DNA of 64,000 bases, taken from contig OZ024741.1 in the NCBI GenBank assembly GCA_964016885.1, positions 299,646,001 through 299,710,000 of the forward strand. The letters run 5' to 3'. The translations under genes and the position numbers were made by a program. Source of the stretch: Eledone cirrhosa (lineage: Eukaryota). Positions within the stretch are counted from its first letter, which is position 1, and every line of letters begins with the position of its first letter. The notes under the pieces were generated by a model. The model searched no databases. It saw nothing but the letters and a program-made list of their open reading frames with translations, and had not been told where the DNA came from. Shown here one piece after another: positions 14,299-55,074 of the stretch.

Positions 14299-14305
14299 AT
14301 ACAGG

Positions 14306-14352
14306 CTTCTACAGGACTCGAACTATTTCATTCGTGCGAAATCATCAGGAAG
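14306..14352 (-). ncRNA. Compact type I hammerhead ribozyme (left arm of a ~95-bp palindrome, 14305-14400)
   Basis: cttc-CTGATGA-t-ttc(gcac)gaa-t-GAAA-tag(ttcgagtc)ctg-TA-gaag; all three stems pair; GUA site. Confidence 0.65.
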
Positions 14353-14632
14353 GTTCCTCATCATTTTTCAGGAATGAAACAGTTCGAGTCATGTAGAAGC
14401 TTTTCCATATTAAACGTTTATACTCTGGTATGTATTGAGTACCTTACTTACTATAATTACCCCGATTGAATCCGGAATAACTTATATATATATATATATA
14501 TATGTAGGAGGTGAGTTTTATTGTAGTACAATAAAGCAATGCAGATATCGGATAAGTAGCACTCTACAGTTTGTAGGAATGGAGTTTAAATAATGATATA
14601 TAAGATCAAAAGATGGTTAAAAGAGTTCCATG

Positions 14633-14703
14633 TATTTTATTATGCGCATTTCAAAAACAAATATCATCATGCAATAACATTTGCGTTTTCGTCAGATAAA
14701 ATA
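14633..14703 (-). ncRNA. Type I hammerhead ribozyme
   Basis: Exact inverted copy of 14825-14895. Confidence 0.8.
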
Positions 14704-51361: not shown

Positions 51362-52595
51362 ACTCTTATTATTCTCTTTTTAATTACCCTTTCTGACTTA
51401 CTTTCATTTTTATCCTTGTCAATAATTTCATTTATTTTCACTTTTATTTATTTTTACTTCACATCCCCCCCCCCTTCATTCTCCGATCCACTTCCTATTT
51501 TCTATTTTTTACTTCCCCTTCTTTTACTTCCCTTTTTCCTCCACTAACTGATTACACTTGTCTTTTGTGTTTTTCAATCCAGATATATTTTTCATTTTTT
51601 TTTTATTTTATTTTTGCGCAGCCTATCTTACAATTTTATATTTGTACTTATTTATCCACATTTCAATATGGCTGAACGCCTTAATGTGTGTATACTTTTT
51701 ATATATGTACATGAGTAACTACGTTGTGCGCGCGCGTGCGTGTATGTATATGTATATATATATATATATATATATATATATATATATATATATATATATA
51801 TATATATATATATGTGTGTGTATGTATATGTGTGTGTACAGGTGTTTGTGTGTGTGTATATGTATATATTATGCGTATGTATACGTGTCTTTATATCCGT
51901 GTCTTTGACATTACGGTTTTATGTTTTGTTCCTTTTTTCTTCTCCCCCCCCTTCCCTCTTTTTTTACTTACTCAGTTTCATACGAGGGCATGCAAACAGG
52001 TTTATATGCGTTAGTATAAGTATGTGTGTGTGTGTGTATGTACGTATCGAACGTATGGAAGTGTAAGTGCGCGTGTGTATATAAGCATAATTATTTTTAT
52101 ATTTCTTTTGTGAGACACGCGTGTCTGTGTATGTATATACCCCCCTTTTTTTGTTTTCTTTAATTTTTTTCTTTCTAATATCTTTTCTTTCTAATTTATC
52201 GTTATTATATTTTTATAAATATATCGAGACTGATACTTTTCTTTTAATTATTACACTCCCTTTACCTCCTTTCTTTCCGCATCTAAGCGTACGAGTGTCC
52301 AGGCGTTTTATGCGCGCGCTTTCATTTACATATTCATATATTTACGATGTAACCATTTCTGTCTGTATAATACAGACATATAGATACATATTTTAGAATT
52401 ACGCATACTTTCTCACTATACATTTACATGTGCACATATACATATATGCACATCTGTGGGCGTATATACATACATATACACACACCTAACTATACTTCTT
52501 GATAGATTTTTATATATTTCAATTTCTATTTCATTTATCTATATCTTTTTTTGATTTTCTTGATGTGTTTTTCTAAGTATTTGCCCATGTTTTAT

Positions 52596-52673
52596 ATTGC
52601 CTCGTCTGACGAACGAATGAAGTCGTTTATTTCGTATTCGCCTCATTCGGGAAACCTCTGGTAATGAGGTAAT
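52596..52673 (+). ncRNA. Type I hammerhead ribozyme in the PLE 3' pLTR
   Basis: attgcctcgt-CTGACGA-a-cgaatga...tcattcg-g-GAAA-cc(tct)gg-TA-atgaggtaat; 10-bp stem I with 2 GU pairs; cut after 52663. Confidence 0.85.
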
Positions 52674-55074
52674 TATATTGTATTGATTTTTATACATTAT
52701 ATATATATATATATATATATATATATATATATATATATATATGTATACATTGTGTGTATGGGTGTGTGTGTGTGTATAGGTGTGGAAGTGCGTGTATGTG
52801 TGCGTCTGCAAATGTTCGGTAAAATTCTATTGAAATGAGTACAGAACACGGCGAAATTTGTAAACAATTCTCATTTTTTTTATTATAGCGAATGAATCTG
52901 CACATATTCGTCTTCAAAACACGGACAATTTCAATTAAAGTGCTTCGTGATAGGATACGTTTCGATTTTTTTCTTCCAGAAATTCAACATTAAACGATCA
53001 TTCGTAATACATTTAGATGGTTCAATATTTTAAACGACACTGTTTCATTAGAACTGGCATGACTATCGTTTGTTCCTTCTGAAGATTAAAGTTCTTGGTT
53101 TACATGTATTCTAGTTGACTAAATTAAATATAAAATATAAAAATATTTTATGATTTATCAATGAAATATAAAAAGAAACTGATATAACTTCAAAATTGTT
53201 GGAAGACAACCACGTGTCTAAAACAATGTTAATTTCAAAAATATTTGCTATCAAATTAATTTGAATATATGTAAAACTATTTCTGTAATTTTGGGTATCT
53301 TAGAATTTAAAATGCCTATGTATTTTATTTTAATACATTTAAAATATTTTCTATATATTCAGTTTTAAACAACTTAACACAATTTCTGTGAAGTTAGGTT
53401 TTAATATCTGACACAATCTGTGGTGATGTATATTCTGGGAAAACATAATGTATGTAGTATTTAAAAATAAAATACGATCTAAATTATTTTCAAATTTATT
53501 CCGGCTATTTTCTGTACGCAGATTTTTCGTATATTATTAAAATGCACAAAATAATATGTTGGTATACTATAAATATATTTGAATACAACAGTGATTTCAC
53601 ACTTATATTAAAGAATGCATCGAAACAAAACAAATTAATCTCTGTAGCATAAAACGTAGATAAAACTGTTCTATCTTACAAGTATGCTCCTATGTAGTCA
53701 TTTCACTTCTAGAACTGCAGCAAATTCTTATTCCCATCAAATCCTAGAATATGAAAAAATGGAACTACGAGGATAATTTATAGTTGCTGGACGGATAATT
53801 TATAGTTGCTGGACGGATAATTTACAGTTCCGACGGATTTTCCATTACCATGATACTGAGAAAAGCCTGCAAGTGAAATTGATGCTATGTCACTTAGCCA
53901 TCCAGAGGCATATGTGCTTTTTACTTCATGGAGATTTAGCGTGACAAATATGTTACAAAACAGTCCCATTTTTTGCCAACTGAATGGACTGGAACAACAT
54001 GAATTAAAACGTCATACTCATGGACACAGGTCACCATAAGCCTTCACTTTGTATAATGTAATACTAAATACACTCCGTGAGAATAGGAAGACAGAGTGTC
54101 AGAATTTGATTGAAAGATTGTGATAATAAGTTTCCTCTTGTCGGAATGGTTTTCGTCTGAACAGCAGATAAAGCAGACGATATGTTGCGAACGGTTGCTT
54201 CTGACAGGATCCGCTTGAAGAAGTGTTTCCGGACTCTGCCCCAACGACCCTCTCAGGACTAAGTGGGTGAAGAAGAAGATTTGTTTAAAAAAACTGATTC
54301 GAGTGTTTAAGCCCTTGACATGATTGTATAATATTTAGAAATATTTCTTTTAAAATTATTTGTAATCTAATTGAAGAAAGTTCCCATCAAATATAAGACT
54401 TAGTCAAGACTATATGATTTCATGGATATTTGATTAAGGTCACTATGCAATTTCATGTTTTCAAGTTCAATTCAACTGCACAGCATCATGGTCAAATAAT
54501 TTTTACCTCACCCACAAGTCGACCGTAAATTAGTGGGTGAAATGTTTTAGACGGAAAATGTGTGGAAGCTCGTCAGGTGGTCATAAATCATTTGGGGTGG
54601 CAGACCAAAATACGCCTCACTTTTAACATCACCACATGAAATCTGAATGCATGCAGTGGAGTCAACGTTGGTGTACGCATTAATGAAAGATATATGGTAT
54701 AAACATAAAAATGACATCCCTTGTTACCATCAGTCTCAGAAGCCTTGCATATGGACATGGGTTTTTCTCCATCCTGGATTACACACTTCCACCCCCAGAA
54801 AAAAGTCTAGTAGTCTTGCTTTAATGTTTTATCAGTCAATTTAGTCAATTTAGTACGTTTGTGGCAACAGATGTAATTGTGCTGCAAAATAATCTGACAC
54901 TGGTAGTACAGTCATTTGGATTTGTTTGTTTGCATTCACATTTATATAATAAATGTCGGGTTCTCTGTATCAAAATCTTTTTATCTTGAATGAGCAATCA
55001 ACGAACTTTTTCTACTGTTTTAATTTTATTATCTTCTTCTTCTTGTTCTTCTTTTTCGTCGTTTTCTCGGCAGA

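Follow-up and report, generated by a model that had tools for sequence, protein, structure and literature searches.

Inverted repeats with hammerhead motifs in both arms are scattered through a stretch of 64,000 nt from Eledone cirrhosa (contig OZ024741.1, within a 3.0-Gb genome; hereafter the window), and they raise the question of what kind of event makes them. An earlier note on this DNA had read them as a truncation series of one Penelope-like element (PLE) integration mechanism, with two ends primed from the RNA 3' region, rather than as DNA transposons. Self-BLAST recovered the six inverted repeats that it listed, named F1 to F6 from left to right, with 1-26% divergence between the arms of the window's fold-backs. 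It was confirmed that all six are real head-to-head pairs of outward-pointing, hammerhead-bearing ends, and the note's statement that each places a hammerhead or its 3' half on the outward-facing strands is true for every one of them (Table 1).

Fold-backs in the window and in a genome sample

Fifteen 40-kb blocks at round coordinates, 600 kb in total, were used as an unselected genome sample. Further loci were selected by query; these were counted from each side, some duplicates remain among them, and those found with tail queries have at least one tail by construction.

Table 1. Coordinates of the hammerhead-family elements in the window and of the parts of F6
Feature	Position	Strand	Inverted repeat (self-BLAST)	Description
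F1 hairpin	14300..14482		14305-14400	Arms 57-59 nt, meeting at ~14352; full core in left arm, right arm full-length with mutated core; tail on right arm (~14409-14482)
F2 hairpin	14506..14935		14587-14941	Arms ~170 nt, meeting at 14764-14766; both hammerheads intact (14833-14887, +; 14641-14695, -)
F2 tail	14506-14588			On left arm
G4 single tail-less arm	15241..15374	-		144 nt; another hammerhead family; ends at the G4 modal 5' limit
G1 hairpin	15459..15601			Variant-core hammerhead-like family; partial tail on right; absent from the earlier note
F3, whole	17050..17535		17078-17551	Right arm a truncated, tail-less copy with the hammerhead 3' half
F3 left arm	17050-17395	-		One whole non-coding monomer with tail; intact core (17220-17255, -)
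G1, two diverging tail-less arms	37279..39794			~120 nt each, 2.3 kb apart; perhaps independent insertions
F4 hairpin	44364..44605		44368-44528	Arms 74 and 93 nt, hammerhead 3' halves only; right-arm tail 44529-44605
F5	45030..46478		45030-46400	Left arm short (~340 nt), tail-less, core deleted
F5 right arm				Longer; decayed hammerhead (C3-to-T change in core); tail 46401-46478
F6 short arm	48983..49554	-	49056-52702 (all F6)	Intact hammerhead 49095-49152; 76-nt tail 48983-49058
F6 short arm, remainder beyond insertion	~49795-49850			
Later insertion in F6 short arm	49555..49793	-		Abundant short repeat and 55-nt inverted neighbour copy
F6 ORF	49838..51361	+		5'-truncated RT and GIY-YIG; Hydra-type motifs; 507 codons
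F6 3' region	51362..52699	+		Intact hammerhead 52606-52663; tail-less end enters (TA)n

With arms of at least 35 nt, and with dispersed short-repeat pairs and microsatellites left out, the window holds ten fold-backs. Eight are diverging hammerhead-family pairs, including two that the earlier note did not list; the others are an inversion inside a PLE ORF (27034-28896) and a fold-back without family (58187-58266). Of the 45 zero-spacer hairpins in the genome sample, 27 diverge (about 60%), none converge and 18 have no family, and 9 of these 18 have (TA)n on one side only, like most assigned hairpins. The 62 spaced repeats comprise 11 diverging, 6 converging and 45 without family. Eight curated families have 110 arms in the 600 kb, 64 of them in 32 adjacent same-family pairs, and all 32 pairs diverge (p ~5e-10 against 50%). 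The earlier note's "nearly every" fold-back therefore describes the window and is too strong genome-wide, yet orientation is non-random, where random orientation was the outcome that the note had said would refute it. In a test by motif only, with the hammerhead 3' half, hairpins had 14 outward and 4 inward cases and spaced repeats had 7 of each. The converging spaced repeats (6/62, and 8 within 4 kb in the pair survey) are presumably neighbouring insertions.

Several other repeats lie near these elements. About 630 nt of another repeat end is directly duplicated at 15690-16860, and block B02 has a hairpin made by a related end. Three head-to-tail units of ~600 nt (46480-48270) are inserted at the F5 tail end; the family, in which the motif scan found no canonical hammerhead, also occurs as a hairpin with one tail in block B13 (L229:3375-3545). 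The later insertion in the F6 short arm, which we take to be an RTE-related SINE, is bracketed by two copies of a 15-nt stretch (49540-49554, 49794-49808). Its 5' side is a 55-nt inverted copy of the adjacent target DNA, which makes a small extra hairpin (49555-49808). Minus-strand fragments of LINE-type RT ORFs and a plus-strand 409-codon open frame, which has no convincing Pfam match, are found at 57210-59073, 61830-62531 and 62558-63787.

Penelope-like families and their hammerheads

Three of the families (F2, F5 and F6) trace to protein-coding PLEs, and their arms lead to PLE ORFs, as the earlier note's reading would have it; F3 is a non-coding tandem unit, and no linked ORF was found for F1 or F4 in about 60 loci each. 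The F6 unit is 3576 nt long and consists of tail, leader, ORF and a 3' region with the hammerhead, and it also occurs as partial tandems. Its top 41 genome matches are 99-100% identical, so F6 is young. All-against-all extension for long copies was blurred by hairpins common to the loci. The single F6 ORF has YRDD and IVY..YVG motifs, RT followed by GIY-YIG. Its linker is CxCX5C, cysteines are absent between GIY and YIG (no CCHH), and CxxC and CxH lie near the end. RWK is present in the F6 copy L259, and DKT (not DKG) in the translations of L259 and of the F5 copy L383. The F6 protein had no Pfam or PDB match, and its assignment rests on motifs and homologues. By motifs rather than by a tree, it appears to match the definition of the Hydra clade. 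The ends of F5 and F2 lead into or follow RT/GIY-YIG ORFs, and pLTRs with a hammerhead were recognised from partial tandems of F6 (L259, L247, L384), F5 (L383) and F2 (L292). By their tail and, in F2, F5 and F6, their pLTR and ORF, the fold-backs are likely ends of EN+ PLEs of a known kind. The largest spacer, given in the earlier note as a whole RT/EN ORF, holds the 5'-truncated ORF of 507 codons together with the later short-repeat insertion. Two more decayed PLE copies with CxCX5C linkers lie on the minus strand at 23430-25390 and 25527-28900, the second with an internal inverted piece at 28762-28896.

F3 occurs as non-coding tandem units of ~318 nt with a type I hammerhead in each (L132, L136, L138, L149, L150), and 26 strict hammerhead motifs belong to this family. 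In this respect it looks like a non-LTR retrozyme.

A strict scan for the type I motif (core CUGANGA, GAAA and UH with stems I-III) covered the window and the genome sample, 664 kb together. It gave 52 matches, 5 in the window and 47 in the blocks, compared with 6 in three shuffles together. Cores or halves that are incomplete in the window copies of F1, F4 and F5 have intact forms in other copies, and the full F4 ribozyme is present in longer copies (L103). An Rfam scan of the window returned no hammerhead, only microsatellite-driven microRNA matches. None of six single-arm folds was clearly better than shuffles (z -1.8 to +1.7), so it is motif and stems, and not folding energy, that support the ribozyme call. 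Some families depart from the canonical form. G1 has a hammerhead-like fold with the core CAGAAGA rather than CTGANGA (15459-15601, 37279-39794 and many loci), in the G2 reference a canonical core is missing and just the 3' half, with a long stem III, is present, and several hairpin families have one-sided (TA)n and a tail with no detectable hammerhead (L182-L240 blocks, e.g. L234:7186-7399).

Tails, arm lengths and a proposed mechanism

All six window elements bear a family-specific tail on just one arm, outside the coordinates in the earlier note. Tails are about 30-90 nt long, depending on the family. In tandem copies the tail forms the beginning of the unit that follows, and in F6, F5 and F2 it runs into the ORF N-terminus. 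The note's picture of arms that run toward (TA)n is right for one arm, which (TA)n abuts directly; on the other side (TA)n abuts the far end of the tail. A tail at one end only is often seen in PLEs (PMC8557442; PMC3846280), and in published work the tail maps between two RT start sites (PMC11167929).

Exactly one tail was found in 32 of 32 adjacent same-family pairs of the unselected 600 kb (p ~5e-10 against 50%). Query-selected pairs have one tail in 47/51 cases for F1, 32/32 for F2 and 27/29 for F4, and a single terminal tail is present in 20 of 21 complete F6 insertions, five of which were found by tail query. The exceptions in query-selected pairs are 12 with no tail and 18 with two tails, 10 of the latter being G1, and two later rechecks reproduced 1 and 0 of these. 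Among 327 query-selected tail-less arms, the partner is tailed for 210, tail-less for 12 and unresolved for 9, and none was detected for 96; for tailed arms no partner was detected in 113 of 289. Given these partnerless arms, one-ended insertions or very short partners exist. A tail-less F6 two-arm insertion (L380-L382, G000:C12:16509000-16532000) lies within a 7.5-kb unit repeated three times, and two of the three repeats have lost most of one F6 arm.

The tail does not follow arm length. In the unselected pairs the tailed arm is shorter by at least 5 nt in 15 of 32, longer in 7 and within 4 nt in 10, and in 20 F6 insertions the tail is on the shorter arm in 12, on the longer in 5 and on near-equal arms in 3. 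Fold-back copying of one arm from the other, in either direction, is impossible where the tail is on the shorter arm and missing from the longer.

This bears on self-priming, in which a cDNA folds back at a local palindrome and serves as its own template; for rotifer Penelope an antisense template has been proposed in this role (PMC3846280). The centres of F1 and F2 do sit on short palindromes, the near-equal 10 of 32 pairs are as symmetric as such copying would make them, and arms share haplotypes. A fold-back arm, on the other hand, must be contained in the first arm, and the 15 unselected pairs and 12 F6 insertions with a short tailed arm break this rule; asymmetric pairs such as 15/164 and 8/171 also have the same 5' limit. 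Self-priming is excluded for the pairs with a short tailed arm and is possible only for symmetric or long-tailed pairs; as the origin of the fold-backs it is unlikely.

Arm lengths vary widely, and in F6 arms of either side measure anything between 6 nt and more than 4 kb. The truncation series proposed in the earlier note is not uniform, since many arms stop at one family-specific point. Counted without body-query loci, the modal 5' limit takes up, in a 7-nt window, 46/85 arms of F1, 17/60 of F2, 12/52 of F4, 52/133 of G2, 12/49 of G4 and 14/80 of G1; no sharp limit was found in F6 (4/32) or F5 (3/13). The limit is kept in the strongly asymmetric pairs, and so it belongs to the template. A TATA-like box begins 31 nt upstream of the limit in F1, CCAAT and TGACGTC motifs lie upstream of it in F4, and an initiator-like TCATTT is at its upper edge in G2; no TATA-like box was found at -31 in F2. 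These motifs resemble the consensus of promoter elements. We infer that the limit may be a transcription start where cDNAs run off. Many different joints into the F2 limit at 14766 occur in public contigs, from a query stretch that begins that arm there and from 4 runs of 1 study, possibly the assembly's own sample. The predicted ribozyme cut was rejected as the stopping point: arm ends are not enriched there (an 11-nt window holds 20 of 504), in a count where tail-less arms under 26 nt are invisible and the cut site is hidden in F1, G1 and G2.

The two arms of an insertion seem to come from one source haplotype. Arms differ from their partners by a median of 2 in 434 columns, compared with 10 between insertions, and the partner is nearest or tied in 9 of 14; later gene conversion could explain part of this. 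Centres are distinct in 15 of 15 F2 hairpins and fall into 26 kinds among 31 F1 hairpins. Of 24 F6 junctions, 13 have an overlap of 1-3 nt, 8 have insertions, of which 3 are copies of adjacent DNA and 3 are ambiguous, and 3 are not callable; none is blunt where 53% would be expected, with a junction caller that favours overlaps. The pattern resembles polymerase-theta end-joining. The flanks are (TA)n, in which target-site duplications are masked, and no clean one was seen.

Two-step homing, where one PLE insertion is followed at a later time by another next to it in reverse, is a still less probable origin. An anole PLE cuts its own ORF-pLTR junction (PMC11167929), and in E. cirrhosa PLEs nest in each other's (TA)n flanks. 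The junctions, however, are at truncated 5' ends and not at the tail boundary (site B below), all 32 pairs have one tail, and the two arms almost always have the same haplotype.

It is very improbable that a transposase moved these repeats as MITEs or fold-back DNA transposons. Such elements would account for terminal inverted repeats, AT-rich targets and the fixed-looking sizes of F1 and F2, and a TA duplication could hide inside (TA)n. Against them, the tail is one-sided, the centre is different at nearly every site, unlike in a MITE, and F6 arms have no set length, while arms are continuous with RT/GIY-YIG ORFs; the common internal structure and symmetric ends of a MITE were not found. Near-perfect palindromes can arise in long-read data, and the fold-backs could hardly be such assembly or library artefacts, with arms that differ by 1-26%, a tail on one side and the many different joints into 14766.

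The reading that we favour, and consider likely, is that each fold-back is a single EN+ PLE insertion made by two target-primed reverse transcriptions from different start sites, followed by end-joining. It draws on the anatomy, the orientation, the one-tail rule, the variable arms and centres, the shared haplotype and the common 5' limits. The element protein would cut a (TA)n target on both strands, and the two ends would each prime a separate reverse transcription of element RNA, one from site A (the far end of the tail) and the other from site B (the tail boundary). With A used at one end and B at the other, every insertion would have exactly one tail. Synthesis of each cDNA would break off early or reach the 5' end of the RNA, and the two products would be joined head to head by host end-joining. 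Where both cDNAs ran off at a transcription start immediately upstream of the hammerhead, the outcome would be a short MITE-like hairpin; long spacers would be cases where one cDNA extended far into the ORF.

One RNA molecule or two may be the source. In the L266 pair one arm is 103 with a tail and the other 1065 without; one of them ends at the limit and the other a long way past it, so the primings need not use one pLTR copy, and such pairs suggest that two copies are usable. A pile-up of tailed arms at site B was considered as proof of a shared RNA and is not decisive (~30/210 within 20 nt), because some arms end within the tail itself and the mirror class escapes detection.

The core of the earlier note's proposal, one PLE mechanism with two primings in place of DNA transposons, thus gains from the PLE ORF links, the differing centres and the tail rule. 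The short hairpins, however, were likely primed at the pLTR copy near the RNA 5' end as well as, or instead of, in the RNA 3' region that the note proposed. A stricter form, to which we give even weight for and against, is an obligatorily asymmetric two-ended integration, in which one protein complex gives site A to one strand and site B to the other. If true, the hairpins of the genome (~50 per Mb, eight families) record both start sites and each family's transcription start, the inverted pLTR and the one-sided tail are explained in one step, and many apparent MITEs in PLE-rich animals are retro-insertions.

Comparison with known systems

In L1 twin priming, both target strands prime on the element RNA and the products are joined by microhomology, with the 5' segment inverted and the 3' end not duplicated. 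The E. cirrhosa elements differ in that they duplicate the end and use fixed start sites.

F6 resembles the Hydra clade of C-terminal EN+ PLEs, described with RT then GIY-YIG, RWK, DKT, CxCX5C, canonical hammerheads and (TA)n (PMC8557442), in its RWK, DKT, CxCX5C linker, lack of CCHH, CxxC and CxH, hammerheads and (TA)n targets. Its unit is 3.58 kb, compared with "generally <3 kb" for the clade, and tails here are ~75-90 nt, compared with the 30-40 nt stated for PLEs (PMC8557442). Like non-LTR retrozymes, F3 has non-coding units with a hammerhead, arrayed head to tail every ~318 nt (PMC4209133; bioRxiv 10.64898/2026.07.22.740005), and unlike them it also makes two-arm inverted insertions with a tail. 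Hammerheads in pLTRs (PMC4209133) and a pLTR promoter (PMC2377424) have been published.

The earlier note's statement that PLE insertions often have an inverted pLTR at the truncated 5' end agrees with published EN+ PLEs. An inverted, 5'-truncated copy with a one-sided tail appears in Fig. 2 of PMC8557442, in Adineta Pen2a (PMC3846280) and in Penelope of D. virilis (PMC2377424). Such insertions likewise have partial tandems, a tail at one end and palindromes at the joint, and the origin of the tandem and inverted structures has been called undefined (PMC8557442). Since the structure is already published, the gain is mechanistic detail and not a new system. What E. cirrhosa adds is a counted one-tail rule and counts that disfavour the self-priming model of PMC3846280 and argue against it for most asymmetric insertions. 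Short two-arm hairpins without ORFs are also very common in E. cirrhosa compared with published EN+ PLEs (32 in 600 kb, eight families), and they look like MITEs to annotation tools. An octopus repeat annotation gives Penelope-like and MITE families, and the portion cited here makes no mention of palindromes or hairpins (PMC13282606). No paper was found that states a model with paired start sites and one tail, although supplements or subscription papers may hold it.

The closest biochemical parallel is anole Poseidon PAc, for which both strands were cleaved and extended in vitro and two RT start sites bound the tail (PMC11167929). The use of both strands, the two start sites and the AT-rich target are alike. 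PAc belongs to a different clade, and in the part of that study relied on here no strand difference in start site is described and the pairing of start sites per product is untreated (PMC11167929). The one-tail rule and the tails on short arms predict complementary start sites on the two strands of one in vitro product.
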